From contig OY771555.1 in the NCBI GenBank assembly GCA_963674785.1, forward strand, positions 1,504,001 through 1,568,000: a DNA stretch of 64,000 nt. Direction: 5' to 3'. This DNA comes from Caldisericia bacterium. Its GTDB lineage: Bacteria > Caldisericota > Caldisericia > JAAYUI01. The translations under genes and the position numbers were made by a program. Below, piece after piece: positions 22,142-61,546 of the stretch (its first letter is position 1; every line of letters begins with the position of its first letter). The notes beneath the pieces were generated by a model, which saw only the letters and a list, made by a program, of their open reading frames with translations, searched no databases and was not told the origin of the DNA.

Positions 22142-22165
22142 GGGAGCAGACGAATGTTTGCTCCC
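22142..22165 (+). other. Intergenic stem-loop without U-tract between MCP and CheA
   Basis: GGGAGCAGAC-GAAT-GTTTGCTCCC. Confidence 0.6.
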
Positions 22166-22210
22166 TATGCATATAGATCATCTAGGATTTTTAGTAGTAA
22201 GGAGTTGATA

Positions 22211-24952: not shown

Positions 24953-24965
24953 TGAGATCAACAAC

Positions 24966-32787: not shown

Positions 32788-32928
32788 GTCCACCTCCATT
32801 TGATTCTGCCAATAAATCCTGAAATAAAAAGACATTCGTACTATATATTAATAAACTGTTACTTTCAAGTATTATGAGATTTTTTCAATAATGAGAAGAT
32901 TTTGCACATTTGTATTTTTAAATCGATA

Positions 32929-36045: not shown

Positions 36046-36636
36046 TTAGAATTTCCTGAATACTCCTTTTACTCTACCAACGATAACGACCGATTCTGGA
36101 TTTATTACAGCTGAGTCTTTTTTTGAGTCAGACGGTTTTATAACAATTTTTGTACCAAAATGAAATAATTTTCCCAGTATCGGCTTGTATCCGTCGATTA
36201 GGCCTATAATTGTGTCACCGTCCATAATTCCGTTTCCAGGTATAGCAATTACAAAATCACCATCTCGTACCCCCTCTTCTTCTAGTGATTTTCCCTGGAT
36301 GGCAACAGCAACACAATCAGAGTTTCTCCCAAAGATTTTATTCATCTTCAATGAACCAAGGTCGCGACTTGTTTTGTTAATTATATCTTGAAGAGTTGTA
36401 ATTTTAAGATTCGGTGCACTGAAATCTTTAAGTTGCATTGATCTTGCTTTATTTGGGTGTTTTTCTAAAAAACCTTTACATATCAGCCTTGAAACATGTT
36501 CATGGACTGTAGAAATTGACGATAACCCCATAGCCTCCCTTATCTCATCGAGACTGGGTGCAAATCCGTGATCAATCGAAAAATCACTGATAAAACCGAG
36601 AATATCCTTCTCCCTTTTTGTAAGATATTTTTCCAT
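36046..36636 (-). CDS. LexA-like repressor with degenerate autoprotease domain
   Basis: LTKREKDILGFI...GFAPSLDEI...SISTVHEHVSRL...KARSM is a LexA wHTH; GKSL..EGVRDGD; C-terminal IVGRVKGVFR. Confidence 0.8.
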   Translation of the reverse strand: MEKYLTKREKDILGFISDFSIDHGFAPSLDEIREAMGLSSISTVHEHVSRLICKGFLEKHPNKARSMQLKDFSAPNLKITTLQDIINKTSRDLGSLKMNKIFGRNSDCVAVAIQGKSLEEEGVRDGDFVIAIPGNGIMDGDTIIGLIDGYKPILGKLFHFGTKIVIKPSDSKKDSAVINPESVVIVGRVKGVFRKF

Positions 36637-36978
36637 TATCGGTCACCTCTCTATCATTCATACGATATTTTCGGCGAATCAGTTCATAAATTTCTCTTAA
36701 CCTTGTGTGTAATAATTTTACGAAAAAAAACCGAAAATGCAAATCGCCAATAGATTTGCTCAAAATACGTCACCCGATGTCTGTAGTTGAGTTTACATGC
36801 ACTTGCTACAAAAACACCTCATATCACTAAATATTGCTCCAGACAGTGATTCTATTCTGTATAAATACACTAAACAGCTGATTAATATATATAAATTATT
36901 TTTATGCAAATATATATTAGTAAAGATATGATAACACTCAAATCAATATATCTACAATAGCAAAAAGCATAAAACCTA

Positions 36979-37007
36979 TTGACAAGTCGCTATATAGCAC
37001 ATAGACT
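36979..37007 (+). promoter_or_regulatory. Sigma70-type promoter with a palindrome in the spacer
   Basis: TTGACA (36979)-17 nt-TAGACT (37002); GCTATATAGC at 36989-36998. Confidence 0.65.
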
Positions 37008-37036
37008 ACGTGACTGAAGTAGATTGGAGGCGGTTT

Positions 37037-37249
37037 ATGGAAGATAAAAAATTGCTGAGCCTTAAGGAGGCTGCTGAATTACTGGGTATCCATTACACTA
37101 CGATGCGTCAGTATGTGCGTAAAGGGAAATTCCCAGTCGTTCGAATTGGTCGACTTCTCAAGATAGAAGCTTCTGATCTGGAGTCATACATCAAAAGCAA
37201 CAAAGTGATCCTTAGAGAAGATGACTTACAGAAAGAAGATGAGGAATAA
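37037..37249 (+). CDS. Small excisionase-family (HTH_17 / BldC-like) DNA-binding protein
   Basis: LLSLKEAAELLGIHYTTMRQYVRKGKFPVVRIGRLLKIEASDLESYI; GGAGG SD before ATG 37037. Confidence 0.88.
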   Translation: MEDKKLLSLKEAAELLGIHYTTMRQYVRKGKFPVVRIGRLLKIEASDLESYIKSNKVILREDDLQKEDEE

Positions 37250-37380
37250 CCATAATACCAACCGTTGGATAAACCAAATTCAGAAACCAAAGGTATTCTT
37301 GGTATGTTCGAGGAGTTCAGAATCATAAAGATTATTCAAAAAGGCACACTAATTTGTGTGAAAACTGAAAGGAGTGCCAA

Positions 37381-40300
37381 ATGAAGAAGCTGATAAATAT
37401 CGTGTTGTCATTACTTATGATGGCAAGTTTAATAACTGTTTTGCCTATGGCATCAGCAAGTGCTGCAGTTGCGGGAACACTGAATATCACAGTTGATCCA
37501 GCAGTCTGTGGAGAGGGGGCGGAGATTGTTCTTGAGTTTGAACAGGCTCCGGGAACTTTTAGCGGGTTCAACGTAACCTTTCTTGGAGGAGAGCTTCTTC
37601 CACCGACCTCAACCACTTCCTACAATTACTATGTGACTATGACAGTACAGGATAATGATTTGTTCACACCTTATCCTGTTTCTCAGTATATCGAATCGAT
37701 CACCACAAGTGGAAATACGCTTGAGATGAGGTTGATGAATGATTACACAGTCACAGGCACAAATGATGAGGTAAAGATTACCATCAATGAAAGCTTTGGC
37801 ATCAAATTACCACCTTGTCCTAATTGTGGACCACAAAACATTCAGGTTGAGGATGTCGATGCGGCTGGTACTCCATCTGGAGCAATTGCCATTAGCTCGT
37901 ATGAATTGATGGGAAAAGTTACTGAGATCAAGGTTTTGAGCGATCCCAACACTGCATCTTCATCAACATCAAGTTATTACTATGGTTATGGTTCAACTTC
38001 TTCAAATACCAAGTTCGGTGTCCTTTTTAGAAGAGATAGTTGTGGAGCACTCGATACAAATGAGTATATCCAGATAAAGTTTCCATCAAGTTTTGGTGGA
38101 TATACAACTTTCCCTGATGGTTTGCTGGATAGTTCAAAAGTAAGAGTTTGGCATGATCCTGTTGCCCCAATTTTCCAAGATACAGTAAGCCATCTTGATG
38201 GCGCACCATATTGGGTTCCATCAACTTCAGTTCCAGTTCTTGCTGTTGAGGCTGACTCAACACAAAGAACGATCACTGTGTATCTTGATGCTGGTGCATC
38301 AATTGCAGCAGATGACTATGTTAGTGTGATTTTTGATAAAGATATTGGCGTATCTCTTCCAACCACTGCGGGTTACCAGACGATTGAGGTTTCAACAACC
38401 GAAGAGTCATATTATGCAACTTCACCAGATTTTATGGTTGCAAATCAGGCTACCGTTGTTGCAAGATCAAATGCCGCAGGAGCTCAGGATGTTGAATACA
38501 ATATCGAGTGGAGTTTGCCAACTGGAATCACGCTCTCGGGAGATGCAGGGGACTGGATTGAGATTCAATTCCAGGATCTAGAAAATCTGAATTGGCCACT
38601 TTCCTCAAACACCCCGTTTGCACCCGGAATTGGCAATTATCCACCAACAGTCGCATTCACAAATTCTTCATACAGTTATTATTATAGTGATGTTGAATAC
38701 GGATCTGTTGTAGAGCCAACAGCACCAACTGCAACATTAAGAATCTATCTTCCACTTGGATATACTATCACTTCGGGCTCAAAATTTACCATGACTATCG
38801 ATCATCCAACACTCGACAACAATGTTAACCCTGGAAGATATAGGGTTATGCTCAAGCATAATAAAGATACTTCAAATACCTGGTCGTACTCAAATTATTT
38901 TGCTTTAATTGATGGAGTAATCTTCAATAGTGGATATGTCATTGTTGAGCCACCAACAGTAAGTAAAGAAGCTCAGTACACAATCCTCTTCGAAGTTGGA
39001 CAGGAACTTAGACCAGGTCAACAGATATTCATTGAATTCCCACAGGAAACTTCATTCACAAATTATACATCAATTCCAGCAGGTGGAGTCTGGTTGGTTT
39101 GGGATACGGTTACACCAACGTTTGGGGCAGATGATTGTGATATTAATTACAATACTGGAACGTGGGTTGAAGGCTTGCCGAGACCTCTTGAATTGAATCC
39201 GTCGATTTCAACAACAGGAACCAATAGAAAGGTAACCCTCACGCTTCCAGGTTCACCAGGTGATTATGTTATTAATGACACCGGTGATAATTTTGTTGCG
39301 ATCAGATTCTGTCTGAATGCTGGCATAAAAAATCCAATGACTGCAGGAATCTATAATCTTGAGGTTTCCACAACAACTCAGCCTGAAAGCTCTCTTTCTG
39401 CCCCATACACAATATCAACCTCGATTACAAATGTTGAGGTAACACCAACACCAAATGCAACATGCTCAAATGGAGTCCAGTATGAGGTCTCATTCAATAC
39501 AGGCGCAAACGGTGGGCTTGATGGTTCAGCCGGTGACTATATTGATATTGATTTCAGAGATCTAAACAAAAATCCTGCCCCTGATTATGCTTCAATCCTA
39601 AATACCTTTGAGTCAACCCAGGCTGTAACTGAAGTATCAGGATATAGTTCACCACCATTTGCAAGTTCAATGGCTTATTGGACAATCGGATTTAGAACCG
39701 GTGCTGCATTGGTTGCAGGCGATACAATTGATCTTCAATTCCCTCCGAATGTCACAGTTCCTGGAAGCATAAATGCAACAGATGTATTTATTTTTGATGC
39801 AACAGTTGCAGCACCAAGCATCTTTGATAACGATGTTCTTGGTGCAGGAGTTACCAATCCATCTGCAGTTGTTGTGGATGGAAACAGAATTACTCTTACA
39901 ACTTCCGCGGGATATGTGATTGACCAGATGATCTATATTAGATTCAGAAGGGCAGCAGGAATCATCAATCCATCTGCTCCAGGTTCAGCATACACAGTTA
40001 AGGTTGCAACATTGCAGCAGCCATATTTTACGCCAGGATTCTTTGCAATCACCGAAGACTTTATTCCGGATTACGGTGCACAGGTACCAACAGCTGATCC
40101 TGAGTGGAGAACAAATACAGCCCCAAGCCCTCTTACCGATGTATTCTGCCCAACTCCAATCCCAAATTCTGCAAGCTCTCCAGCACAGTATATCTTCTCA
40201 GTAAGAACACACGAAACTTGTCAGTTTTCTGGGTCAACTCTTACCGTCCAGTTCCCACAGGGGACATATATTCCAAGTTCAATTGACCCAAGTTTTATTC

Positions 40301-43300
40301 AACTTCGAACACAGGCAGATACTGCATTTTTGTTTGCACCAGATTCTGCATGTTCAACAGGAACATCAACGCCTGCATCGGTTACAATCGATCAAACAGC
40401 AAGAACAATTTCATTCCCTCTTCCTGCAGCATTCAATGCAACTCAATTTGCTCATGTTCTTATCTGTAGAGACGCTGGAATCAGAAACCCTCCAACAGTT
40501 GGTGTCAATTATCAGCTTGGAATTACTATTCAAGGAACAGCAGGTTGTTCTGGTGGTGAGGTTGAAGTAAAGGCCACTTCAGAATATTTTGCAATTACAC
40601 CTGCACCAATTGGTGGAATTATCCCACCACTCCACACAATAAACATTGGCGGTGGTTATTATTATTATGGTTATTCATCAAACCACCCAAGCAGTGTTGT
40701 CGCAATTGGACCACAGGCACTTAGAATTTATTTACCAGCAGGTCTCAAGATTCAGCAGACCCAGTCAGTTACAGTTACCTTCACAAGTGCATCAGGTCTT
40801 GTAAACACTTGTACAGAAGGTGGATATATTGCAAAAGTCAGGACATCAAAAGAAACATCATGGGTTGATAGTACTCAATATTCAATTGTTGATACCGTGC
40901 AGTTTAGTTGCGGAACATATCCTGATGTAAATCCACCATCCACATCAACTGAGGCACAGTATGATTTGAGTTTCACAGTTGGACAAACTGGTGGACTTGA
41001 AGCTGGTGTTGATACAATCACTGTTGCATTCCCAAGTTCAACAACCATGAATAGTTTTAACATGCCGGCAGGATCAATCTATGTTTCAACTCTCCCAATT
41101 ACTGGAGGGTGCCCTGCTGATTCTCCAGCAAAAGTTGTCACACTTCCTCCAACTGCCTCAGGAACGGCGGTAACATTTACTACACCAATCCATATTGGAA
41201 ACAGTCAAACGGTTTATGTCAGATTCTGCAAATCTGCAGGAATCAAAAACCCATATCAGGCTGGAAGTTATACGCTTCAAGTGAAAACATCGAAACAACC
41301 TAACTATGGTATCTCCTGTAGATATGCAATTGGAACAGCAATTTCTGACGTACAGGTTGAACCGATCCCAGCATCAGCTTGCAACGAAAATACTCAGTAT
41401 AAGCTCACATTTAAACAGGGAAGTTCGGGAGGACTTAAGGGTTCGAACGGTGACTATATAGATATTGATTTCTATCATCCAGATAACCCTGGAACTGATA
41501 TGGCTTCTATAAGCAATATCTTCACAGCTATAAATACTCCATCACCATCATCGGTCACAGTTAGTCCATACGGATATTCGTACAGTTATGGCAATAGCTA
41601 TGCTAGTGCTGTTGAATGGGTGGATACGCCACAAGGGAAGAAACTGAGGGTGTATGTACCCGCAGACTTCACCTCATCATCCTCTGGACAGATTACCGTG
41701 ATATTTGAATCAGGTGCTGGACTTGATAATACCTGCTTCCCAGCACAGTACAAAGTTAGAGTCAGCACAAGTCTTGAACAGGAAGAGGTTGATTCCTCTC
41801 CGTATTCCATTGAAGATGCTCCAAGACAGATTACAGTTGATGTCAATCCATCAACGATCTCAGAGGAAGCTGAATACACAATCAGATTCCAGGTTGGTGC
41901 AAATGGTGGCTTGACTGCAAACTCTGACACAATCACAATCGCATTCCCATCGGGTACAACTGTTCCTTATAACTCGATTTCAGCAGGCTCAATATGGATT
42001 GCGGAAGCATCAGACTTTACAAGCACTGGTTGTCCACCAACTCCTGTTGGTGGTGGGTCAGCTGTGCAGGTACAACTCCCACCAGATATTTCAGGTCAAA
42101 GTGTTACTTTCACAACACCAATGAATATTTCAAACAATGCACAGGTTGTTGTGAGATTCTGTCTTAATGCGGGAATCAAGAATCCATATACTGCTGATGC
42201 CTACAGACTTCAATTGAAGACATCCAAACAATCTGCATATGGAATATCTGAGCCATACGCAATTACATCAGCAATCTCTGATGTTAAAGTCTCGCATACA
42301 CCAAACATTATTAATGAGTGTGATGTTGAAGTAGAAGTGGAATTCAAAAATGCAAACACAAGCTTGTCGGGTGACCTTGGAGACTATGTTGATATTCAGT
42401 TCCAGGATTTTGTAAAGAATCCAGGCCCAGATTATGCATCAATCTCAAATAACTTCTCATCAAGCACCTCAATTGCAAATCTTACCGTTCATCCATTGAC
42501 ACAGCCATTTGATGCCACTGCAGTTCCATGGAATACATCAAGATGGGATATTGATTTCATGACGGGAACTGGTGGAGCGTTAACTACTGGTGACACAATT
42601 GTTCTTGATTTCCCCGCCAACTGTTCAATGACAGTTGCATCGCTTACAAACAGACTTTTCCTTTCTGATGAACAGTGGGATGAGTATTCATTCTATGCTG
42701 GTGATAACTATATCAATGCCGGTGGAGTAGCAAAACTTGCCGTTCCAGCTGCAATGATAACCGTTGTTGGAACAAGGGTAACAATTACAAACCCACCAGT
42801 TGCAGCAGGAGGAATTGATGTTGGAGATGGTGAGACTGTTTATATCAGAGTTCTCCAACAGGGAATCACAAATCCATCAACTGCCGGAGACTCATATGTT
42901 CTTCAAGGATACACAAGTACTCAGCCAACATCTGCAAACTCAAATTACTTTGGAATTTCCTCACTCAGACCAACAAGAGCTCCAGTCCCAATTATTGATA
43001 TGAACTGGGTTGGCCCTAACCCAATTCATAAACTTCCACCAAGCATACACACAAGCACTGCAGGACAGTCAGCTCAGGTGGACTTGATGCTTGAACTCAG
43101 ATCTAACTTTGATTCAACACTTCTCCCAACACCACAGCTTTCTGTTACCTTCCCAACTGGATTTGTAGTTCCATCATCTATTTCTGCAAATGACATTTGG
43201 TTATCTGTTGCAACAGCACCTGCTGGAGTCGGATATCCATTCCTCAATTGCTCAAATTATATGGGGACTCCATTTGTTGACTCAACAGCTCCAGCGGGAA

Positions 43301-46300
43301 CATTCGGTCCACTTGACAATACTCCAACTGTTTCTGGTAACACTGTAACATTTGATGTCCCAGCATTTTTTACGGCAGCAAATGCTATACCAGGTGCAAT
43401 TGTTTACATTCAGTTTAGACAATCAGCGGGAATCAGAAATCCAACAACAAATGCAACAAACACATATGCAATCGATGTCTCAGGAACTGATAACGCTGGA
43501 GTATCCGGTTCTTGTGGATCGGAGTATGTACCAGTAACACCACTTGAAAATCCAGCCTCAGCTACCTCAATAAATCCATCATCAATTACTCTCGGAACAA
43601 GCTATTCAGGAAGCTATACAACTGGATCAGTTCATCCTTCAAAGGTTGTTGCTCTTGGTGACAAATATCTGAGAATTTACTTGCCACTTGGATTTACATT
43701 CAGTGCAAACACAACTGCAAAAATCAAATTCGAAAAATCCGCAGGTCTTTGTAATACCGGAACCGCTGGAAGTTATATTGCAAAAGTTAGCACCTCAAAA
43801 GAATCAACGATGATCGAGTCGGCACCTTATTCGATTATTGCTGCTGTCACCGGTGTCAATGTTATGGTAGTTCCACCAGTCATCAATATGTATGCAAATT
43901 ATACAATCGACTTTGTTGACTCTTCATCAGGTGGATTATCAAAAGGAACTGGTACCATAACAATTGCCTTCCCAACTGAGACAGGTGTTCTGACCTCAAT
44001 TGCAGCAGGAACTGTCTATGTTGCAAAGAATGTTAACTTTGACAACAGTATCTGTCCACCGACTCACAGTGGAGTCTTTGGAACAGACTATGCACCACTT
44101 GAAGCACCACCAGTTGTTTCTGGAAAACAGGTCACACTCACAGTGCCAATCAATATCGACCCTGGTGATCATATCTACATCAGATTCTGTGAAAGCGCAA
44201 AAATCAAAAACCCTGCAACTGCGGCATACTATACGCTTCAGGTCATGACATCTGCACAACCCGACTTTGTTGTTTCAAACCCATATGCAATCAAGAGTGG
44301 ATTGAATCTACCAGAAGTTGAAGTTATTCCAAATTCAATCAGTAGATCAGGAAGCACAGCCAGACTTGCTGCAAACGCAACAGGAACAAATGTCATTGAA
44401 CTTGATACAGTCTCTGGTTGGATTGCAGGAGACCTCATTCTTGTTGGTGATGTGAGTCATCCATTTGGTGCAGGAGCCGTATTTACCAGTGTCACTTCAG
44501 TTGATACCATAAACAACACATTAACACTTTGCGACAATGTACCTGCGACATTTACAACTGGAACTGAAGTATACAGGTCAAGAACTGGAATCTTTACAGG
44601 CGCAACAAACGACCCAGCTCCTGGTAATAACTTTGTTGATGTAACCGCAGCAACAAGAGATTTGTTCCCAATCAGTTCATACGTTGCACTGATTGATTTG
44701 ACCGGTACAAATTGTCCTGAGTTGTTCCTTGTCTCATCACATATGTCCGCTACAAGACTTGGTCTCTCTAGAAATATCGTTGCTGACTTCCCTGCACCTG
44801 GAAACACAAGAGTTGAACTTGTACAGTTCCATCAACCAAATGATGGATGTTCAGGTGACACATTTGCCGAGACAAAAATCACATTCAAAACTGGTTCATC
44901 GGGAGCTCTTCTTGCAAACAGAGACAAGATATATGTTGCTCTTGAATATGCTCCATCAGTAAATGACAGGGGTTATCATATAACCGGATCATCAATTTCA
45001 TCCGGAAGTGTAATGGTTAATGATACAGTGTGTTCAGTTGCACCAACAATTGGAATTACACCAGTTGGTGGAGTGTATACACCATCACCAACTCCAACAT
45101 TTGGAAGTGATTATGTAACACTTGAAATCACCGTGCCAGAGGATATCTCGGGTGGACAAGAAGTTGTTTTAAGAATCCTTCCAAATTCTGGAATTCCAAA
45201 CCCATATGTTGCTGGAAGCTATACTCTTGCAGTTTGGACAAGTATTGAACAGTCAGCAAACGAATCTCGAACCTATGAAATAGTTGATGGTGTAGCATTC
45301 GATGTTAATGCTGTGACAGTTACTCCGCCAAGCACATCTGAGAACGCAAGCTATGTTGTTGACTTCTATACCTGTGTTTCACTTACTGAGAATTATGACA
45401 CCATCACAATCACATTCCCAGATGATACTGTTGTACCAGCGTCAATAATGCCAAATCATATCTTTATAGACGATGATCCAGTATTTGATGGAACAGTATC
45501 AGATGCGACTCCTCATCTTCAGGCACTTGCTCCGATTATTGTAGATAGCGGTGAACGTTCTATTACATTTACAACTCCTATGAGTTTCAGTGGAAACGAT
45601 AATCACGTGTATGTTAAATTTACGTATGAGGCTGGCCTGGTTAACCCGTCAGTTGCTGACTCATATAGGTTAAAAGTAAAAACAAGCAAGCAGCCAAAGG
45701 ATGTTGAAAGTCCGTATTATGAGATCAGAGATACATCTTCAAAGGCTATTGTTTTTCCAAATCCACCAACAGCAAATAGAGAAAATGTTGAATACACAAT
45801 TACATTCACACTTTCAACAGCTGGAAATCTCACAAAAGACATCAGTTGGGTAAAACTTCAGTTCCCTGATAACGATATCTACGGACTTGGTGGTGGATAC
45901 TCAACAGTTGAAGCATTACTTCCAACTTCCATTTCACCAGACAACATTACCGTCAACGGAACAAGGCTTACTGTCATCCCAACTGTTGATACAGTTGATA
46001 GAACTTTGAAGCTCATCGTTCCAGAAACGATTGAAGCCGGCGAAGAGATTGTGATTGTGATCCAGTCTGGTGCAGGTATTACAAACCCAGTTGTTGGATC
46101 ATACAGAATGGGTATTCAGACCTCAGTTGAACCCGTTTACATCGATACTGAGATTTACACCATCAAATCAGCCCTGGGTGGAACTGCCGGTTCACTTAGT
46201 CCAGAAATTTGCCTTTCCTATGACTATTCGGTTCTGACTGCAAATGAGGCTGCTGCAGCAACACCAGTTTTGAATGTTGATTCAGTTAGAAACTGGAGTG

Positions 46301-51435: not shown

Positions 51436-51481
51436 GAAAAATAGGCAAAATGATGAATAGATTTGAGCCACAGAATAATAG

Positions 51482-51719
51482 TGACAAAAGGGAGAAAACC
51501 TCCCTTTTGTCAGGTAGATTTCAAATCAGAACAGAAGAAAGAGAAGACAGAGACTCCTGGGGAGAAATCCCCGGGGGTTACGAGCGAGAAATCTCATTTG
51601 TTATGGTAGCTGGTGATTCCAGCTACCCGAAGAATAAAGATTTATAGGATGATAGATTTATTTTGTGATTCAAACCTGTTATGTTTGAATAGGAAGACTG
51701 AAAAAAATCCTCAGTTTTC
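51482..51719 (+). ncRNA. Candidate structured RNA element (five consecutive hairpins) between the two giant genes
   Basis: Stems at 51482-51512, 51552-51579 (GAAA tetraloop, G-U pairs), 51605-51627, 51668-51690, 51693-51719. Confidence 0.45.
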
Positions 51720-51743
51720 ATTTTTCCTCACAAGGAGGCAGAT

Positions 51744-54700
51744 ATGAAGAAGGTATTATCCGTACTTATTGTCTTTTTGATGATTATAATTATGGTTCCG
51801 TTTCAACCGGTTGAAAATGTCCAGGCTTCAGGAAATGTTATTTCGTACGTATATCTGGCTGGAACTACAACCGAGGCGATAGCAATTGCCAGAACAGGCG
51901 GTAACCAGATTCAGTTTGTATATACGCTTGCTCAGGAAGCTATAGCACAGCAGCACGATGATACAGCAACTCTCAGTTGTATTGCACCGGAGGCAGATCG
52001 TCTGCATGGTGTAAAAATCGTTATTCCAAATTATTTCCCACTACCATCACTTGATGCAACTGCTGAGGGTTATATTGATTTTACAGGTGGTTCAATTACA
52101 CCAAGTCCTGTCAGAATCGATAACAGAACGGTCTACGCATATTTCCCGACTGGAAGTATTGGTGATACAATAGTTGTTACATATGGTAATGCTACCACTG
52201 GTATTGTGATGCCTGACCGACCAAATAGATACAGTTTTTCATTTGGTGCAAGGATTTCAACCACTGAATGTACATATTGTCCTGGAAACATGAAAGACTA
52301 TTCCTCCGCAACGACTGGATTTCAGACAGTTTCACCTACCCCTCAAGTATATGTTATGACAAACATGACTCCTGCAACCCTCACATTTGATCCAAACACA
52401 GAGCTTACTAATTCAGAACTTACCGTAAACTTTGTGCTTGGAGCAGGTGAAGATCGTTCACTTTTTGCCGGTGACATCATCAGAATGCAACTTGACTATG
52501 ATGCTGCAACTGCTGCCTTTGTTGTTGATGCTGGTGCGGGTCTTCTTCCGAGAACCACGCAGGTTCCACTTTCAATCAATAAGGATTATGTGAAAGTAAA
52601 TGGTTCAAAATGCTCGGTTAGTCCGACGGTAACCATGATGGGTTCAGGCAACTACCAGATTGATGTATTTATTCCGAGAGACATCAGATGTACAAACACA
52701 ACAGGACGAGCTGTCTCGATTGTCTTTGATAAATCAGCTGGGATCATCAATGGTGCCGGTGCACCATTTGAGAGAAATGCACTGATTCAAACTCTCAGGG
52801 GAAGCTTAGTTCATGTTGAACCAAATCCTGATGTGACAGACGGTGTTGTTGATGGATTCCTGACATCTACTGCTTACAGGATTGGGTCTCAGGTTACCTC
52901 TCCCGCAGTAACTGTCATTTCAAATCAGGTTGAAGAAAATGCAGTTTACTATATTGGTGCAATCTCAAACCCTGGTGCATCCCCTCCATATATTATTCCT
53001 GCCTGCGGAACCCAGGGGTCGCTTCAGATTGGTGGAAATGGAACTCTGCTTGCAAATGACGGAACAATTACTGTTCAGTTCCCAGCAGGAACTGAAGTTC
53101 CAAGTTCAATGTCTCCAGGTTCAATAACAGTTGAAAACATCACAACAGGCTCTGGTCCAAATGTTGTCAGTTCAGTCCCTCAGGTTTCAAGTAACAAAGT
53201 AACCATGAAAACACCTATAGATATTAATCCAGGTGATTGTATCATGATTACTTTCCTGAAAAGTGCGCATATTGTGAACCCATCTGTTGGAAAAGATGAT
53301 TATTATCTGAATGTCTGGACAAGTGCAGAACCAACAGTTATCTCATCCATGCTTTATTCAATTGTTAACCCTGGATGGGCTGTTGTAAACGTTTTACCTA
53401 ACATATCGTTTACAGATGGTGCTGGATTCCCACCAGGACAGTCAGGACTCGGTATCAATGAATGTTCAGAACATTACCAGCTCAATGACCCTGCTGGTAA
53501 CCCAACACAGGGAGCAAGATACACAATTCAATTCTCACTTACAGAGGACTCAACAGTTCCAGTTGGCGGTTTTATTGATTTGATTTTTGATCCTGCTTAT
53601 TCAGCACTTATTGGTCTTGTAAACCTTGCAAGCCCACAGTTTATAACTGTTAATGGTGTCTCTTGTACAGTTGCTGCGGTTACCTCTGTACCAAACAGAG
53701 CAATCAGAATAACAACTCCAGTTGTACTTAATCCAAGTACACAGGTTACAATCACACTTCAAGAAGGCTTCCAGCTTTATAACCCAGACCTCTATGATGA
53801 AACAGAATCGTTCAACATCAATATTGATTATCTACCACTTGGTGCTGTTGGTGCAGGTGGGTTTGATGTTATTTCTGAACCTTACATGCTCAAGTGTGAG
53901 GTAAGCAATGTCAATTACACTGTTGGTCAACAGGCTGTTCAGACAATAACAGACTGGTGGATTGATTTCTGTCTTGGTGATGTTGGCGATAACACATTCC
54001 TCGGAACATCAAATCTTCTTCCTGGTGATACCATTTCCATCATGTTCCCTGAAGGTTCATATGTTCCATCTGGAATAATTCCATCTGGTTCGATTCAGAT
54101 TATGGATATGTCTATCCCACCTGGCCCTCCATGGCCAACATATTCTGTAACAAGTGCATATTTTGATGAAAATGTTTTAATTTTAACAGTTCCATCTGGT
54201 GCAGCATTTACCGAAAACTCAACACTTCAGATATTTGTTCCTCAGAGTGTTGGAGTTAAAACCCCAGAGGATCCAACATGCATGTCAGTTGGTGTTCGAA
54301 CATCAAAAGAAACAACATGGGTACAGAGTAATCCAGTTTGTGTCGGAACAACTGTAAAAGATGTTGGTGTGATTGCCTCTCCAAACACATCTGAATCGAT
54401 CAATGAAAATTGTGCCCCTGCATCGTCAGAATACACAATTAGATTCAGAAATGGAAGCTATGGTGCGCTTTCTCCTGGTAACTTTATTTCACTTGCAATA
54501 CCTGCAAATCCTGTAAATGCTGGTACAAACTCAGTTGGGTTTGACATTGATATTGACGATGACTCAGCAATTGGTGCAGGTGATGATATTGCGATGGGCA
54601 ATATCCTTCTAAATGGTATTCCAAATACCACTGCTTTAACGTGGTATGACCGATTTGATGGATACTACTACATCAACATTCCTGTTCAGACTTATATTGC

Positions 54701-57700
54701 TGCTGGCTCACTCATTCAAATTATTATTCTCAATACTCAGGGAATAAGAAACCCAAGAATTGATAAAACCCCTTCACAGTATATGTTTGAGATGAGAACA
54801 ACAACTGAACCAGCTTGGGTAAAATCACTTCCATTTGATATTATCACAAAGATATGTATGGATTGCGAAGATTTTGAACACACTGTATCTTTTGCAGGAT
54901 ATTCAATAATCAATATGGATTCAGCAGAGGTTTGGGATATTGGTTTTAGTATTCCAAGTATTATTGCGGGTGTTCTTGGAGGACTTGTTGCTGGAACTGA
55001 TACTATCACAATAGAGTTCCCTGCTGATGTAAGTCTTCCATCATATATTGATCCAGTATCAGTTTTTGTTGGTCCTCCTGGAGGGTTATTACCATGTAGC
55101 AAGGTTGTAGTCAGTGGACAGAAACTCATCATTACGACGCCATATACATTTACAACTGGTGATAACGAGGTCAGGATACAAATTGCTGAAAATTCGGGAA
55201 TTCTAACCCCATCAACACCTGGAGACCACACTCTCAATATTTGGACATCTCAATTGACAACATCGGTTATTTCTTGTCCGTTTACTGTTCGCGCACGAGG
55301 AATGACACCAGCAATAGTTACTCCGTTAACATCGATTGCAGGTGCGCCAAATACTGAGTACACAATCAAATTCAATGTTGGTCAATATGGTGCCTTATCG
55401 ATTGGTGATACAATCACTCTAGCTTTCTTTGAAGACAACCTAGGAGCACCAATTGCAACTGACATCAACATTGATTTTGGTGGCTACTCAATTCCAGCAG
55501 ATTTTGTAAAGATTAATGGTGTGTCTTGTTCGCTTCCTATCGAGTATACCGAGGATATTGCAGACCCATATAATCTCACAATGATTATTAGGACTCCTAT
55601 TGCGATTCCACCAGGTGGTGAGGTTGAAATCGTTCTTTCGACAGACTGTAGAATAACAAACCCACCATATCCATCTTCACCAAGTACAAACGATGCTCCT
55701 CCTATTGTGGGTGAACCGGGTGAATATCTTGAAAGAGAAGACAGAGACTACTTTGTCGATATTTTCACAAACAAGGAAATTACACCGGTCAGGTCCCTTG
55801 AGTATGAAATAACTCCTGCAAATATCTGTACCAGACCTGTAACTATAAACGATCCTTGTATGACAAGTGCAACAGCTGATTATACAATTTCATTCTATAC
55901 ACATAGAGAGCTGACTCAGTCTGTTGATAGCATTTTCTTGAGATTCCCCGAGGGATTCTATTTGCCAAATAGAATAGCTCCAAATCTTATAAGGGTTAAC
56001 GGCTACCTTTGTACTGATCCACCAACAATTGATGACTATTACCTAACAATTCTCGTTCCCGAGACTATTCTTCAGTATGATAAGGTTACAATTGAATTTG
56101 ACTCATCGCTAGGTTTACAAAACCTTGATCGAGAGGGTCAACACTTGATGAGGGTTTCAACTAGACAGGGAGGGACACCTCCGCCAAATGCTTGGATAAG
56201 CGATTACTTTACGGTCTGTGAGAGAAGAGAAATCTGTCATCTTACGATTTCAACATCTGTTGGAAGGGTTCAGGAAGTAACCGTTCCACAGGGTGGAACA
56301 ATGGATTTCACAGCAAGTGCCTTTGATTGCACAAATGTCGCGATTAGTAAAGATGTCAAGTATTCATGGATGTTTGTCCCAGATTCAAGCTCATATTCAA
56401 TAATTGGTCACATTAGCCCACTTGAAGGAACCTATACTACATTCACAGCCGGAGAAATGGGAGATGGCACATTGTACTGTTATGCGACATACGGTAATAA
56501 AACCATCTCAAATTCCGTTAAGATAAAAATCTCAGGAGAAGCTTCGAGTTTGATTATATCTCCTGGTGGACCAATGACTCTCATAAAGGGTGATTGCTAT
56601 ACGTATTCAGCTCAACTTTATGATAACAATGTACCTCCTCATGCAATTACATCTGGTGTTACATACTCTTGGGAAGTTACAAATCCAAATGTTGCAACTG
56701 CCGCTCCTGAAAGCTCTCAAACGACACAACTATGCCCAACAGCATCTGGTGCCGGAGCAATTGTTTGTAAAGCTTACTATAATGGTAATGAGGTTGTTGC
56801 AAGATCAGACTTTACTGTTAAGGCCGGAATATATGCCCTTAGACCAATTCCGACAGATGATCTTGGTCAACTACGTGTTGGTCAGGTTTCAAACGAACTA
56901 ATGTTCGAACTTATGGATGAGTATGGTGCAGCAGCACTTGCGAAGGAAAGTTTCAAAGTAGTTGTTGAATCTACTTCGCCAACTTCAAGGTTTACAACCA
57001 ACAAAATTGATTGGACAACAACCAACAAGATTGAACTTGAAATTGTTCAAGGCTTTTCAAGAACTCAACCTTTCTATTTCTCAGATTCAGCGTTAGGTAA
57101 CGTATCCATCACCGCTTCCGCAACAGATATAGTTTCTGCGAATATGAGGGTTAGAATGATGGGGCCTACGTCCACAATCACGTTTACAAATCCATATCGT
57201 GTGACTTCTGCGAGTTCGCCGACTGATAAGATGACACTATCTCTTGTTGATGAATATGGAATGATTTCTCCTCCAAATTCTGATATTACTGTTCAAATGA
57301 CAGCACACTTGATTGTTAATGGTTCAATTTCATCTCAGGCTTCATCAACAGGCGAATTCTCATTGTCAGATGTAAGCTGGTCACCACTTCCAAGTGGTAT
57401 GTTAACCATGAAGTCTGGTCAACAGAGTATTGATTTTTACTACAAAGATAGCATGAAGGGTACATATGTTGTAAAGGCTACAACAATCTTTAATGGAACT
57501 GCCACCCAGACACTCGAAGTTACTGATGAAACCGGAGTCGAGGGAAATTTGATTGTTGAAGTGCAAAGACCAATTGCTGGGGTTGATTCAGATTATCTCA
57601 TCGAGTTTAGAACCGGGGGTGGTGGATCAATGAGTGCTGGCGTTGGACACATCTATTTACAATTCCCAGTCGGGACAACAATTCCCGGTTTTGCAAAATC

Positions 57701-59942
57701 TGACATTACAATCAATGGAACACCGTGCCAGCAAACTCCAATAGTTGATACCACTACAAACTCTGTTGATATTGTTACTCCGGTTACTATTGGTCCAAAT
57801 ACCGATGTCAGAGTGATGGTACCAAGGATAATAAATCCACCTGAGGGAACGTATTCCATGCAGATTTGGACATCATCTCAGCCAAGAGTGGTACCATCAA
57901 AAGTCTACGAAATTGGAGTTTCAACGGTTTCTGATTTGAAGGTTTCTGTTGTCCCGAATTCGGTTGGGCTTGCCGGTGAATACACAATAACATTTAAAAC
58001 TGGGCCATCAGGTCAGCTTGCAACTGGTGCAACAATAACAATTCAGTTCCCTGTTGGTACAGTTATTCCTGCTGCAATCAGTGCTGATAAAATCGCTGTC
58101 AACGGTGTCTTGTGTACACAGATGCCATTTGTCCAGGGACTTCAATTACAGATATACAATCCAATGCCAATTCAAGCATCTCAGGATGTTGGAATAACAA
58201 TTGATGATACCGCAGGCATCAAAAATCCAGTTATTGCAAAAGCGGACTACACACTTAAGCTTGCCACAGCCTCAGACTCGAAATTTGTTGACTCAACTCC
58301 ATTTGAGATAACACAGGTTTCAACTCTACAGAATGTAAAAGTGAAGGTTACTCCACCAACAATAAACAAAGCTGCAAGATATGAAATTACATTCCAGACA
58401 GGGCAGAACGGTGCTCTTCTTGCTGGTGATGTTATCAGTATTCAGATGAATGACCAGACATTACCAACTGCAATTCCAAAACTCTATGTCTCTGTTAATG
58501 GTGTAAACCCATCATCAGATGTAATTGTTAATGGTAAGCGCCTTGAGATAAAGCTTGCTCAGGGAATTGCTGCAGGTCAGAATGTTGTCCTTATTATTGA
58601 ATCACAAGCTGGTGTCAGGAATCCAGTGACTCCAGGAAGTGACTATAGAATCTCACTGTTTACAAACAAAGAACCATATGCTGTAACATCAGAACCTTAC
58701 TCAATTGAGAGTGAGCTTGTTGTTTCCTATAGCGTGTCTCCATCTGAACCAAATGGTTCAAGAGGTTGGTATACAGTTCCACCAACAATCACACTCAAGT
58801 GTAATGTTTCCGCAAACATCCAGTATCGATACGAGGGTGACAGTCAGTATCAGACATACAATGGGCCTTTCACAATCACAAAAACTGGTCAGGTTGTAAT
58901 CTATTATAAGGCTACGAGTCTCACATCAGGCACTGAATCGCTCGAGAAGGATATTGTGATTAAGTACGATCCAGGCAAACCTGAGGTCACTTTGCCAGAA
59001 TTCACAACAGATGACAAAATACAGGTCAAGGACAGTTCTTACCGAATCTGTGGTTCAATTTCTGATGCCTCTGATGTTGAACTCACAATGAACGGTTCTC
59101 CTGTTTCACTCAATAGTGATGGAACTTTCTGTGTGAATGTTGCGCTTGTATCTGGTGATAACAAGTTTGAGTTCTGTGCAACAGATTTTGCTGGTAATGT
59201 TATCTGTAAAACAATTACGGTTGAGAAAAAAGATAAACCTCCAGTATTGATCTTTGATGAACCCGCCTTCATGGCAAGAATCTCAGAGACCGAATTCCCA
59301 TATGATAGTGCGACAAACCATTATCAGTTGAAGGTGACTCTTCATATCAAGGGCTCAACTGAAGAAGGTGTCGGTGAAATAATAATCACACCAAAAACAG
59401 TTGCAGGCGAATCACAGAAATTGACGGTTGGAGCTGACGGAAAATTCGAAGGAGACTTGACCTTTGATGCTGTCGGTGGTCTCAACAACTTTGAAGCTGT
59501 TGCAACAGATGCACTTGGAAATGTTGCTGTTTCAAGTCTTAAGCCTGTTGTATCTATAGATTTCAGGTTACCGATTGACTCAACAACATCGACTCTGAAC
59601 GGTGATAGTGTTACGCTTCTTTCGGCACCATACATCAACAGCGGAAGAACTATGGTTCCATTCCGAGTTATGGGTGAGGCGATTGGTGCAACAATTGGAT
59701 GGGATGGCAATACAAGAACCGCAAGCTTTACTCTCGGAACGACAACGATCAAGCTTACAATCGGCAGTAAAACTGCAACAGTTGTAACTGATGGACAATC
59801 AAAGACCGTTACGATGGACGTTGCGGCCGAAATTAAGAACGGTTCGACAATGGTTCCATTCAGATTTGTTGCAGAAAACTTCGGTGCATCAGTTACCTGG
59901 GATTCCGCAACAAGGACAGCAAGGATGGTTTATCCGAAATAG
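51744..59942 (+). CDS. Giant (2732 aa) secreted surface protein, paralog of 37381..51435, with C-terminal copper amine oxidase N-terminal-like domain
   Basis: Signal peptide; about 11 GIxNP modules; PNGSRGWY; GRTMVPFR and STMVPFRFVAENFG; AAGGAGG SD. Confidence 0.88.
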   Translation: MKKVLSVLIVFLMIIIMVPFQPVENVQASGNVISYVYLAGTTTEAIAIARTGGNQIQFVYTLAQEAIAQQHDDTATLSCIAPEADRLHGVKIVIPNYFPLPSLDATAEGYIDFTGGSITPSPVRIDNRTVYAYFPTGSIGDTIVVTYGNATTGIVMPDRPNRYSFSFGARISTTECTYCPGNMKDYSSATTGFQTVSPTPQVYVMTNMTPATLTFDPNTELTNSELTVNFVLGAGEDRSLFAGDIIRMQLDYDAATAAFVVDAGAGLLPRTTQVPLSINKDYVKVNGSKCSVSPTVTMMGSGNYQIDVFIPRDIRCTNTTGRAVSIVFDKSAGIINGAGAPFERNALIQTLRGSLVHVEPNPDVTDGVVDGFLTSTAYRIGSQVTSPAVTVISNQVEENAVYYIGAISNPGASPPYIIPACGTQGSLQIGGNGTLLANDGTITVQFPAGTEVPSSMSPGSITVENITTGSGPNVVSSVPQVSSNKVTMKTPIDINPGDCIMITFLKSAHIVNPSVGKDDYYLNVWTSAEPTVISSMLYSIVNPGWAVVNVLPNISFTDGAGFPPGQSGLGINECSEHYQLNDPAGNPTQGARYTIQFSLTEDSTVPVGGFIDLIFDPAYSALIGLVNLASPQFITVNGVSCTVAAVTSVPNRAIRITTPVVLNPSTQVTITLQEGFQLYNPDLYDETESFNINIDYLPLGAVGAGGFDVISEPYMLKCEVSNVNYTVGQQAVQTITDWWIDFCLGDVGDNTFLGTSNLLPGDTISIMFPEGSYVPSGIIPSGSIQIMDMSIPPGPPWPTYSVTSAYFDENVLILTVPSGAAFTENSTLQIFVPQSVGVKTPEDPTCMSVGVRTSKETTWVQSNPVCVGTTVKDVGVIASPNTSESINENCAPASSEYTIRFRNGSYGALSPGNFISLAIPANPVNAGTNSVGFDIDIDDDSAIGAGDDIAMGNILLNGIPNTTALTWYDRFDGYYYINIPVQTYIAAGSLIQIIILNTQGIRNPRIDKTPSQYMFEMRTTTEPAWVKSLPFDIITKICMDCEDFEHTVSFAGYSIINMDSAEVWDIGFSIPSIIAGVLGGLVAGTDTITIEFPADVSLPSYIDPVSVFVGPPGGLLPCSKVVVSGQKLIITTPYTFTTGDNEVRIQIAENSGILTPSTPGDHTLNIWTSQLTTSVISCPFTVRARGMTPAIVTPLTSIAGAPNTEYTIKFNVGQYGALSIGDTITLAFFEDNLGAPIATDINIDFGGYSIPADFVKINGVSCSLPIEYTEDIADPYNLTMIIRTPIAIPPGGEVEIVLSTDCRITNPPYPSSPSTNDAPPIVGEPGEYLEREDRDYFVDIFTNKEITPVRSLEYEITPANICTRPVTINDPCMTSATADYTISFYTHRELTQSVDSIFLRFPEGFYLPNRIAPNLIRVNGYLCTDPPTIDDYYLTILVPETILQYDKVTIEFDSSLGLQNLDREGQHLMRVSTRQGGTPPPNAWISDYFTVCERREICHLTISTSVGRVQEVTVPQGGTMDFTASAFDCTNVAISKDVKYSWMFVPDSSSYSIIGHISPLEGTYTTFTAGEMGDGTLYCYATYGNKTISNSVKIKISGEASSLIISPGGPMTLIKGDCYTYSAQLYDNNVPPHAITSGVTYSWEVTNPNVATAAPESSQTTQLCPTASGAGAIVCKAYYNGNEVVARSDFTVKAGIYALRPIPTDDLGQLRVGQVSNELMFELMDEYGAAALAKESFKVVVESTSPTSRFTTNKIDWTTTNKIELEIVQGFSRTQPFYFSDSALGNVSITASATDIVSANMRVRMMGPTSTITFTNPYRVTSASSPTDKMTLSLVDEYGMISPPNSDITVQMTAHLIVNGSISSQASSTGEFSLSDVSWSPLPSGMLTMKSGQQSIDFYYKDSMKGTYVVKATTIFNGTATQTLEVTDETGVEGNLIVEVQRPIAGVDSDYLIEFRTGGGGSMSAGVGHIYLQFPVGTTIPGFAKSDITINGTPCQQTPIVDTTTNSVDIVTPVTIGPNTDVRVMVPRIINPPEGTYSMQIWTSSQPRVVPSKVYEIGVSTVSDLKVSVVPNSVGLAGEYTITFKTGPSGQLATGATITIQFPVGTVIPAAISADKIAVNGVLCTQMPFVQGLQLQIYNPMPIQASQDVGITIDDTAGIKNPVIAKADYTLKLATASDSKFVDSTPFEITQVSTLQNVKVKVTPPTINKAARYEITFQTGQNGALLAGDVISIQMNDQTLPTAIPKLYVSVNGVNPSSDVIVNGKRLEIKLAQGIAAGQNVVLIIESQAGVRNPVTPGSDYRISLFTNKEPYAVTSEPYSIESELVVSYSVSPSEPNGSRGWYTVPPTITLKCNVSANIQYRYEGDSQYQTYNGPFTITKTGQVVIYYKATSLTSGTESLEKDIVIKYDPGKPEVTLPEFTTDDKIQVKDSSYRICGSISDASDVELTMNGSPVSLNSDGTFCVNVALVSGDNKFEFCATDFAGNVICKTITVEKKDKPPVLIFDEPAFMARISETEFPYDSATNHYQLKVTLHIKGSTEEGVGEIIITPKTVAGESQKLTVGADGKFEGDLTFDAVGGLNNFEAVATDALGNVAVSSLKPVVSIDFRLPIDSTTSTLNGDSVTLLSAPYINSGRTMVPFRVMGEAIGATIGWDGNTRTASFTLGTTTIKLTIGSKTATVVTDGQSKTVTMDVAAEIKNGSTMVPFRFVAENFGASVTWDSATRTARMVYPK

Positions 59943-59968
59943 ATTGTCCACACAGAATGAATACTTTC

Positions 59969-59997
59969 AAAAAGGGGATCATTTGATCCCCTTTTTT
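59969..59997 (+). terminator. Intrinsic terminator ending the giant-gene unit
   Basis: AAAAAGGGGATC-ATTT-GATCCCCTTTTTT. Confidence 0.88.
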
Positions 59998-60106
59998 GTT
60001 ATATAAATTATTTTATTTTTATTTACTTTTCACAATTAAAATCAAACTTATTGCTTTTGTGTCAAAAAACTTGTAGGATATAAGAGGATTAAATAAGGAG
60101 GCTAAC

Positions 60107-61546
60107 TTGAAAAAGCATATTGAAAGAGCTCTACAAAAGGCAAAAGTTGCTGGAGCAACCTATGTTGATGCAAGGATACTCAAAACCCAAGATGAAAGGA
60201 TTGCAACTAAGAACGGTGTTCTTGACAATCTTTCATCAAATGAATCAAAGGGATTTGGTATCAGGGTAATTGCCGATGGTGCCTGGGGATTTTCATCTTC
60301 ATCGGTAATTAATGATTCTGAAATTGACAAAGTAGCGCAGGAAGCCGTCGCAATTGCGAAGGCATCTGCAAAAGTAAAACATGAACCTGTAAAACTCTCA
60401 CCAGTCGAGGCATATGTTGACGATGTAAAATCACCTGTAAAAGATGATCCGAAGGATATCCCAATCTCAGATAGAGTTAAATTCGCTCTTGATTGTGATA
60501 AAACCATGAATAAAGATGGTATTGTCAGTAGATCAACAAGGCTTTTTAATAGACATGAAGACAAGTGGTTCGGTTCATCTGAAGGTTCAATGATCTATCA
60601 GGAGGATGTTAAGGTTGGAGCAGGATATACTGCCATTGCATCGAATGGGAAAGAAGTTGCGCAACGCTCATATCCGGCATCTTTTGGTGGTGTTTATTCC
60701 AGAGATGGCTGGAATTACATTGAAAAATACAAATTGATGGAAAATGGCGGACGAATTGCTGATGAGGCAGTTCAGATTCTTTCTGCTAAACCATGTCCAC
60801 AGGGCAAAAAAGATATTGTTATTGAAGGTTCTCAGCTTGCGCTCCAACTTCATGAGTCAATTGGACATCCGGTTGAACTTGATAGAGTTTTTGGAACAGA
60901 GGCTGCTTTTGCTGGAAAATCTTTTGTAAAACCCGAAATGATGAAAGATTTCAGATATGGCTCAGATATTGTAAACATTACAGCTGATGCCACAATCCCT
61001 CACGCTTTTGGTGGTTTTGCATATGACGATGATGGTGTTAAGGCTCAAAGGGTATTCATCATCAAAGACGGAATCTTCCAGAGGTTTCTCGATTCAAGAG
61101 AAGATGCTGCAAAACTAAATATGGCTTCAATGGGTGCAAACAGGGCATCATCATGGAGTAGAATCCCAATTGTCAGAATGGTTTCAGTTAATCTTGAACC
61201 TGGTAACTCAACATTCGATGATTTGATTAAAGATGTTGAAGATGGCATCTATCTTTCAACTGTTCTTACGTGGTCAATTGATGATATGAGACTCAACTTC
61301 CAGTTTACAACAGAACTTGGTTGGGAAATCAAAAATGGGAAACTTGGTGAGATGGTCAAGAGACCTACCTATACAGGAATCAGCTACGATTTCTGGAGAT
61401 CATGTGATGCAATTGGTAACAAAGACCTGTGGGATGTCTGGGGTGTGCCAAACTGTGGTAAAGGTGAACCAATGCAGCTTATGCATGTCTCACATGGTGT
61501 TTCGCCAGCACGATTCAGACAAATCCAGGTGGGGGTGGGATCATGA
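60107..61546 (+). CDS. tldD: TldD metalloprotease subunit
   Basis: GFGIRVIADGAWGF, HESIGH.ELDR, YDDDG, CGKGEPMQ; TTG start after AAGGAGG. Confidence 0.9.
   Translation: MKKHIERALQKAKVAGATYVDARILKTQDERIATKNGVLDNLSSNESKGFGIRVIADGAWGFSSSSVINDSEIDKVAQEAVAIAKASAKVKHEPVKLSPVEAYVDDVKSPVKDDPKDIPISDRVKFALDCDKTMNKDGIVSRSTRLFNRHEDKWFGSSEGSMIYQEDVKVGAGYTAIASNGKEVAQRSYPASFGGVYSRDGWNYIEKYKLMENGGRIADEAVQILSAKPCPQGKKDIVIEGSQLALQLHESIGHPVELDRVFGTEAAFAGKSFVKPEMMKDFRYGSDIVNITADATIPHAFGGFAYDDDGVKAQRVFIIKDGIFQRFLDSREDAAKLNMASMGANRASSWSRIPIVRMVSVNLEPGNSTFDDLIKDVEDGIYLSTVLTWSIDDMRLNFQFTTELGWEIKNGKLGEMVKRPTYTGISYDFWRSCDAIGNKDLWDVWGVPNCGKGEPMQLMHVSHGVSPARFRQIQVGVGS

Follow-up and report, generated by a model that had tools for sequence, protein, structure and literature searches.

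Among the giant, repetitive immunoglobulin (Ig)-domain surface adhesins are the staphylococcal proteins Ebh and SasG, SiiE of Salmonella and LapA of Pseudomonas. These are hundreds of kilodaltons of tandem beta-sandwiches that form an acidic, repetitive, projecting rod anchored at one end, either by an LPXTG signal and sortase or by type I secretion (T1SS) of the RTX type with an outer-membrane plug. A different use of the Ig fold is found in BslA and YweA, the biofilm surface-layer proteins of Bacillus subtilis (PF17735), which are secreted sandwiches of about 120 residues; BslA, small and made of one domain, assembles itself into a film. To our knowledge, the phylum Caldisericota is almost entirely uncultured and its cell envelope is essentially undescribed. 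In this study, we analyse a 64,000-nucleotide stretch (the window; contig OY771555.1, positions 1,504,001-1,568,000) of the single-contig, 2.23-Mb, 92% complete genome of a Caldisericales bacterium, in which two adjacent genes encode very large paralogous proteins, here called giant1 and giant2. We consider it likely that the two are surface fibres of a probably single-membraned (monoderm) bacterium, held non-covalently in its cell wall. The features of the locus, in window coordinates, are as follows (aa, amino acids; pI, isoelectric point; HTH, helix-turn-helix).

36046-36636, minus strand: LexA-like repressor gene, 196 aa, divergent from the operon (LexA_DNA_bind 58.5 bits, Peptidase_S24 36.4 bits)
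36979-37007, plus strand: sigma-70-type promoter, TTGACA-17-TAGACT, upstream of the HTH gene (10 of 12 matches in a consensus scan)
37037-37249, plus strand: small HTH_17/excisionase-type DNA-binding protein, about 70 aa from its ATG (frame open from a GTG at 37010, 79 aa)
37381-51435, plus strand: giant1, 4684 aa, 496 kDa, pI 4.55; carries a signal peptide (read by eye), 23 matches to the module, the two nested units below, a pair of paralogous insert units, further Ig-like domains and, at the end of its tail, Cu_amine_oxidN1
39433-40905 (aa 685-1175), plus strand: nested unit 1 of giant1, an apparently split module with two whole modules between its halves
42283-43848 (aa 1635-2156), plus strand: nested unit 2 of giant1, arranged as unit 1, with profile halves and two full matches
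51064-51420 (aa 4562-4680), plus strand: Cu_amine_oxidN1 ('stalk') domain of giant1, probable wall anchor (PF07833, 76.9 bits)
51436-51743, plus strand: hairpin-rich intercistronic spacer, first stem-loop at 51482-51512 (minimum free energy -102.7 kcal/mol)
51744-59942, plus strand: giant2, 2732 aa, 292 kDa, pI 4.5; signal peptide read by eye, 11 module matches and Ig-like domains
59595-59921 (aa 2618-2726), plus strand: Cu_amine_oxidN1 domain of giant2, ending its tail (PF07833, 120.6 bits)
59969-59996, plus strand: strong intrinsic terminator after giant2, with 12 stem pairs (5 of them G-C), a 4-nt loop and then a T run

Both giants are built mainly from one module of about 125 residues, named GIxNP. 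An iterated profile seeded on a single repeat recovers it 23 times in giant1 and 11 times in giant2 (E values down to 6e-42), a repetition far beyond chance. When 30 modules are aligned, their consensus closes with A-G-I-x-N-P, and the Asn is the only nearly invariant residue. The AlphaFold2 (AF2) model of this alignment is an Ig-like sandwich, predicted with a local distance difference test score (pLDDT) of 97.8 and a template-modelling score (pTM) of 0.90. The best Foldseek matches to it are BslA and YweA (4bhu and 5mkd; E 1.7e-4 to 5e-4, TM 0.55-0.63), and YweA is also found by VIA (Z 9.4, root mean square deviation (rmsd) 3.3, 112 aligned residues). The top VIA match is the copper-binding domain YcnI/DUF1775 (PDB 7me6; Z 10.2, rmsd 3.0, 110 of 129 residues aligned), at 18% identity and with no sequence-level match; YcnI is a single membrane-tethered domain, whereas the module is a tandem repeat in giant proteins. 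The proteins behind these nearest folds are secreted or lie at the cell surface.

By sequence, the sole family that touches the module is DUF2808 (PF10989), a family described from cyanobacteria. Summed over the whole of giant1, DUF2808 scores 34.2 bits against a cut-off of 25.3, with no single stretch passing; of the 30 modules taken singly, 4 match at E <= 0.1, the best with 23.3 bits and so below the cut-off, and giant2 has no Pfam match to DUF2808 at E <= 0.01. Among 22 scanned homologs of the module, 9 match DUF2808, with scores up to 109.5 bits. The BslA family itself, PF17735, has no Pfam match in the giants at E <= 0.01 and is approached by one homolog (P0052, 23.4 bits, below the cut-off of 38.7). 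Nothing among the PDB sequences falls below E 0.07 with the module profile, and in Pfam, NCBIfam and PDB sequences no characterised adhesin or S-layer family matches the module. A feature-based search of the ESM Atlas places a BslB cluster second (0.86) and also contains a DUF2808 cluster, both of which serve as leads only. From these matches, the module is a divergent member of an uncharacterised Ig family with a BslA-like fold and a distant relative of DUF2808. The likeness to BslA lies in the fold only: in the wall-anchored giants, copies of the domain follow one another, 23 in giant1 and 11 in giant2. Judged from their listing, none of the 'BslA-like' papers listed concerns tandem giants; one paper names a DUF2808 protein among those discussed for the Anabaena exoproteome.

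Other Ig-like surface proteins compare less closely. The CnaB-type domains of Gram-positive pilins and of microbial surface components recognizing adhesive matrix molecules (SpaD 4hss, PrgB 8beg) align to the module model over 110-116 residues; together with cohesins they reach VIA Z scores of 7-8, which lie in the tool's stated background range. The giants have no pilin motif or sortase signal, their C-termini being PF07833 domains, and the genome has no sortase match (PF04203). The 30-module alignment lacks a conserved Lys that could be the isopeptide partner of the nearly invariant Asn. With the giant adhesins the likeness is in size, repetition, acidity and anchorage at one end, and the differences are a Sec-type signal (read by eye) with a C-terminal PF07833 in place of the sortase or T1SS routes, another type of module, and the nesting of modules within modules.

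This nesting concerns two units of giant1. A contiguous module (aa 1327-1480) aligns to nested unit 1 in two pieces, at unit residues 5-59 (E 8e-15) and 428-487 (E 2e-12), between which lie two complete modules; in profile terms, halves 2-37 and 63-125 flank two full matches. Similarly, halves 3-46 and 43-125 flank two full matches in nested unit 2, which over 537 columns shares 32% identity with unit 1. All six giant1 orthologs retain both units, and the AF2 model of unit 1 (491 residues) has a pLDDT of 82.8 and a pTM of 0.73. The alignments thus indicate a module split in two by whole inserted modules. Also between modules of giant1 stand two paralogous inserts of about 180 aa, at aa 2305-2493 (window 44293-44859) and aa 2929-3108 (46165-46704), which share 28% identity (E 1e-6), have no Pfam match and each resemble two small beta-rich subdomains. 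In the ESM Atlas the 189-aa insert meets a phage head-fibre cluster (0.90, with just 146 shared features), a weak lead only.

The tails of the giants (451 aa in giant1, 411 aa in giant2) are collinear with 26% identity (E 3e-29). Both begin with P-N-G-x-x-G-W-Y, in which P, G and Y do not vary among the aligned orthologs of either giant, and for giant1 neither does G-W; in both a Glucodextran_B-like Ig domain precedes the C-terminal Cu_amine_oxidN1. A complex prediction on the two tails (score 0.00, mark 0.32) gave no answer and counts neither way. At the other end, both proteins begin with what reads by eye as a Sec-type signal peptide, MKK followed by a hydrophobic stretch and then ASA/A and VQA/S. 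This is the sole hydrophobic run in either protein, the remainder being acidic and rich in Thr and Ser.

The C-terminal domain passes the PF07833 cut-off of 24.2 bits in both giants and belongs to a very large family within this organism. Pfam finds 148 PF07833 matches in the 2.2-Mb genome, and our own iterated profile finds the domain in 129 open reading frames (ORFs), in 95 of them at the C-terminus; 13 of these ORFs are at least 2000 aa long, and together the 129 make up about 17% of the genome. A distant homolog is annotated 'stalk domain-containing protein [Caldisericia bacterium]'. Two sources (PMC4137172 and bioRxiv 10.64898/2026.09.23.753664) describe PF07833 as a companion of cell-wall hydrolases and as a predicted wall-binding module. 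On the simplest account, the organism uses the stalk domain as its general means of anchoring proteins in the wall, and among the many proteins of its surface proteome so held the giants are the largest. A search of the available literature returned no paper coupling Caldiserica with copper amine oxidase domains, and Cu_amine_oxidN1 turned up in a single paper, on an unrelated subject.

The envelope setting agrees with such an anchor. Neither giant has a Pfam match to an SLH, sortase-signal, autotransporter or RTX family, and Omp85 has no match in this genome, which sets the giants apart from SLH-anchored S-layer proteins and, together with their Sec-type N-termini, from T1SS/RTX adhesins and autotransporters. 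SLH (PF00395) has three matches in the genome, in two ORFs other than the giants. A preprint (10.1101/2021.05.31.446380) counts Caldiserica among lineages discussed for an outer-membrane loss in which some SLH/CsaB was retained, and the host is probably monoderm.

Stalk domains also occur in other settings in this genome. Within the window, examples of matches lie at 1453-4197 and 5854-9849, and more stalk-domain giants, whose open frames measure 3039-3693 aa and which have no GIxNP module, follow one another at G000:C1 ~670,000-783,000. The genome has seven cohesin matches in Pfam (six over the cut-off) and six dockerin matches. Judged by matching positions, a stalk domain accompanies cohesin in at least five ORFs, for example the one at window 1453-4197 on the plus strand, which suggests a small wall-anchored cohesin-dockerin system in this Caldisericales bacterium.

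The module likewise extends beyond the locus. It is present in 13 ORFs of this genome, the two giants and 11 more; 8 of these 11 carry PF07833 by Pfam, and by our iterated profile 11 of all 13 do. Across the class it occurs in 40 of 41 sampled genomes, and among 1.84 billion cluster representatives it has 2534 matches at E <= 0.001 and 452 at E <= 1e-30. The 22 scanned homologs carry interchangeable surface anchors: PF07833 in five, C-terminal domains of the type IX secretion system in five and a dockerin in one (P0061). TIG domains occur in two, and five have no Pfam family at all.

The first-pass annotation, which had been made from the letters of this stretch, anticipated much of this architecture. 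Its four ORFs, with two giants drawn from a common GIxNP module, are borne out by the ORF list and the profile matches, and the single tail that it gave to both is the collinear region described above. Its failure to recognise SLH, LPXTG, autotransporter or RTX motifs is matched by Pfam, its picture of secreted, paralogous, stalk-ended modular proteins is supported (with signals read by eye, and with PF07833 treated as wall-binding in the sources cited), and a match of the module to a characterised adhesin or S-layer family, which it had named as refuting its reading, did not appear in Pfam, NCBIfam or the PDB sequences.

The two giants have travelled together. Orthologs of the first 900 residues of giant1 were found in seven of ten other genomes of the family and in none of 30 genomes from four other families (E <= 1e-20). 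The missing copies in G004, G006 and G010, and a cut-short match in G007, look like assembly breaks at repeats, since in G004 the contig starts 1.5 kb away from the tldD ortholog, and G007 and G010 do have the HTH gene. In the six family genomes whose contigs allow the comparison, the order wherever the contig reaches is S8 protease, relA, dtd, metallo-beta-lactamase (MBL) hydrolase, lexA-like (divergent), HTH_17, giant1, giant2, tldD, pmbA and mur ligase. Giant1 is 4421-4702 aa long in five of these relatives, with one more copy ended by a contig end, and giant2 is 2713-3026 aa long in four; the intact orthologs, in conserved order, span three genera. Identities to the copies of this genome across the six are 77-89% for HTH_17, 54-68% for the LexA-like protein, 42-73% for giant1 and 43-75% for giant2. 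Because identities of 42-75% go with lengths that stay intact, the giants evolve like ordinary genes, whole over 4400-4700 codons. Much of the conserved order is plain collinearity, as it also covers relA, dtd, the MBL hydrolase and tldD/pmbA.

A more distant form of the pair occurs in a second family, f5, where a profile search finds adjacent genes for proteins of 3601-3608 aa and 2519-2533 aa, 43-53 nt apart. They are linked to giant1 and giant2 by reciprocal best similarity (899 vs 285 bits and 867 vs 261 bits), and their neighbours are an AAA_14 ATPase, a family 2 (GT2) glycosyltransferase, further module-plus-stalk proteins and rimP-nusA-infB. Since f5 keeps the pair without the regulators, the ancient conserved core is the giant1-giant2 pair, and the regulators are a family-level addition or simply neighbours.

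An origin of the block in a mobile element or prophage, hinted at by the excisionase-type HTH protein and the repressor-like LexA, is rejected: in three genera the block keeps its chromosomal place between relA-dtd-MBL and tldD/pmbA-mur, and its G+C content is unremarkable.

Two neighbours on the conserved chromosome deserve mention. Downstream, tldD/pmbA lies 3' of giant2 in every relative (window 59942-60107; L009/L010, L011/L012, L013). Here and in G003, 165 nt that include a terminator separate giant2 from tldD; in G002, G005 and G008 the two are 12-29 nt apart or overlap, so that in these three tldD may be co-transcribed with giant2. On the upstream side, window 27655-32835 encodes on the minus strand a secreted subtilase of 1726 aa (Peptidase_S8, with a DUF11 domain) that is conserved upstream of relA in relatives.

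The signals around the giants are consistent with a single transcript. The promoter scan is not significant by itself (7 sites found vs 6.5 expected), and the TTGACA -35 element is invariant in all six aligned relatives, with a -10 of TA(G/T/A)ACT in five and TATCCT in G008. The true start of the HTH gene is probably the ATG at 37037, given the GGAGG 7 nt upstream of it and the relatives that align from HTH residue 10. Scans found no plus-strand terminator or further promoter between the HTH gene and giant1, and in genus g3 the called HTH ORF ends just 22 nt before the called giant1 start. Nor did they find a plus-strand terminator or promoter in the 308-nt spacer between the giants, whose folding energy lies at z -7.4 relative to shuffles, with about six local stem-loops. 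Across four sequences, 6 of the 11 pairs of the first hairpin have changed on both sides and still pair. Rfam has no family over 36000-60200, and a 71-aa ORF at 51432-51647 matches nothing in Pfam and lacks homologs at the loci of relatives. The simplest reading is that HTH_17, giant1 and giant2 probably share one transcript of about 23 kb.

Of the two small genes, the HTH protein meets both HTH_17 (PF12728, 54.2 bits vs a cut-off of 27) and TIGR01764 (47.5 vs 28.8). Its nearest solved relative is the mycobacteriophage excisionase Gp37 (4j2n, E 1.2e-4), it has one weak paralog in the genome, and it is the most conserved gene of the block, above either giant. The LexA-like protein scores 95.5 bits with TIGR00498 (93.1 in a six-frame genome search), below the equivalog cut-off of 110.95. 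It aligns end to end with LexA of Thermotoga maritima (3k2z, its best solved relative, E 2.8e-15), with I-N at the position of the Ala-Gly cleavage site. The Ser/Lys dyad is present in this copy, and among six orthologs Ser is replaced by Thr or Tyr in two and Lys by Arg in three; self-cleavage is thus improbable. This gene is also the genome's only full-length LexA-family ORF. Operator motif searches across the genome gave no convincing site for it, and three candidates were dropped: a conserved motif near the lexA-like start has just two occurrences genome-wide, a Cheo-box-like sequence has six that show no pattern, and GAAC-N4-GTTC has 130 matches that, from a few coordinates inspected by eye, seem to lie largely inside stalk-domain coding sequence.

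On expression and organisation the first-pass annotation fared unevenly. The promoter that it placed at 36979 is present, with the qualification given above, and its terminator after giant2 has the 12-bp stem and T run expected of one. Its label 'degenerate LexA' for the divergent gene is correct because I-N replaces Ala-Gly and the dyad is not conserved in orthologs. The spacer is as rich in hairpins as it had claimed, though about six stem-loops take the place of exactly five, and the order lexA-like/HTH/giant1/giant2, whose synteny it had suggested checking, is kept in the six relatives. The regulators that it had called the system's own reduce at most to HTH_17 within one family, the second family keeping the pair without HTH_17 or a LexA-like gene. 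A self-contained system, finally, is contradicted by the 11 further module ORFs, the 2534 matching clusters and the 148 stalk-domain matches. The locus is most likely one instance of a lineage-wide, wall-anchored design of giant Ig-repeat surface fibres.

A mechanism along these lines can be proposed. Sec would export each giant through its N-terminal signal peptide, and the C-terminal stalk domain would fix it in the wall. From there the chain of Ig-like modules, in places branched where whole modules have been inserted into another, would project outward as a semi-rigid acidic rod, which at an assumed ~4 nm per Ig domain would reach about 100 nm in giant1 and less in giant2. Both giants may then form a fibrillar coat for adhesion, cell-cell cohesion or shielding. 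In their home family, HTH_17 and the giants would be transcribed from the promoter at 36979 up to the terminator at 59969, and the stem-loops of the spacer may govern how stable the mRNA is or how much giant1 is made relative to giant2.

Several observations weigh against wall-anchored surface fibres or limit how far they can be taken. The signal peptides of the giants were assigned by eye only, and the view that PF07833 probably holds them in the wall rests on domain association, not on assay. A search of sequencing runs found four that contain the stretch or part of it (shares 1.00, 1.00, 0.13 and 0.05; the two at 1.00 are possibly the source sample), none of them RNA. No function has been demonstrated for the module, and DUF2808 is itself uncharacterised, so that this link names the module without explaining it. 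A fold search with the nested-unit-1 model returned just the two inner modules (ranges 55-401), and the packing of the split host module thus rests on sequence alone. The spacer sequence is poorly conserved (mean column identity 45%) and shrinks to 43-53 nt in f5. Near the f5 pair, moreover, there is no HTH_17, LexA-like gene, relA or tldD, so regulation by the two DNA-binding proteins is not a general property of the pair.

Regulation is the point on which the nearest rival turns. The block could be a stress-regulated or phase-variable surface module, in which a non-cleaving LexA-like repressor and HTH_17 switch the giant operon from a shared 370-bp divergent control region. The divergent arrangement in six relatives, the conserved promoter and the strong conservation of HTH_17, with its one weak paralog, would suit such a switch, and the loss of Ala-Gly together with an unconserved dyad would fit a repressor that no longer responds to DNA damage. 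The sole full-length LexA-family gene may, however, simply be the organism's LexA, the conserved order includes unrelated housekeeping genes, f5 keeps its giants with neither regulator nearby, and the motif searches, with 2 and 6 genome matches and no pattern, yielded no convincing operator. We therefore regard this reading as possible yet doubtful, and dedicated regulation by the LexA-like protein is unproven. Equally unproven is co-assembly of the giants, the basis of a second rival in which both would form one ordered envelope structure, a two-component S-layer-like canopy or sheath around the cells. The persistence of both paralogs side by side across two families at just ~29% identity, their collinear tails, their probable single transcript and branched nested units that could cross-link all point in this direction. 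Adjacent paralogs can nevertheless persist without binding each other, and neither giant has a lattice-forming family or an SLH domain, the SLH domains of this genome being in two separate ORFs. S-layer subunits are typically far smaller than 496 or 292 kDa, and with 13 stalk-domain ORFs of at least 2000 aa giants are common here; an ordered two-component structure thus seems distinctly unlikely.

A third possibility is that the giants act like cellulosome scaffoldins, their modules docking other secreted proteins while the stalk domain holds them at the wall. The module model does align to cohesin modules (Z 7.1-7.7), one distant homolog (P0061) carries a dockerin, and the genome has six dockerin matches. 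A Z of about 7 is, however, within the tool's background range; the seven bona fide cohesin matches in other ORFs already roughly balance the six dockerins, as against 34 modules in the giants, and Pfam finds no cohesin in either giant, all of which makes a scaffold role very improbable. A bolder extension of the surface-fibre reading, which we think unlikely, would make the anciently paired giants the main structural elements of a stalk-anchored protein coat with which Caldisericia cover themselves and which takes up about a sixth of the genome, with module-in-module branch points cross-linking the rods into a sheath or canopy mesh. Simple paired surface fibres, held non-covalently in the wall, remain the reading that we favour.

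Elsewhere in the window, two plus-strand clusters stand apart from the giants. An oxidative-stress cluster at 10081-14421 encodes a rubrerythrin, desulfoferrodoxin, ferritin, a GAF protein, a flavodiiron-type protein and a flavin reductase-rubredoxin fusion. A chemotaxis-type cluster at 17267-25828 encodes two receiver proteins, CheW, a methyl-accepting chemotaxis protein (MCP), a CheA-like kinase and two ORFs without a Pfam match.

The module described here, a relative of DUF2808 with a BslA-like fold, is a building block of the Ig type that is widespread yet without a name, and is a candidate for curation in Pfam. The placement of whole modules inside another module, kept across genera, is an unusual way to branch a repeat protein. 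If the giants did form a cross-linked mesh, it would be an envelope layer of branched Ig-module polymers rather than a crystalline S-layer. PF07833, for its part, appears to be the phylum's general surface-display anchor, paralleling SLH or LPXTG in other single-membraned bacteria. No major paradigm is changed by these observations; they offer a concrete entry to the surface biology of a poorly known phylum.

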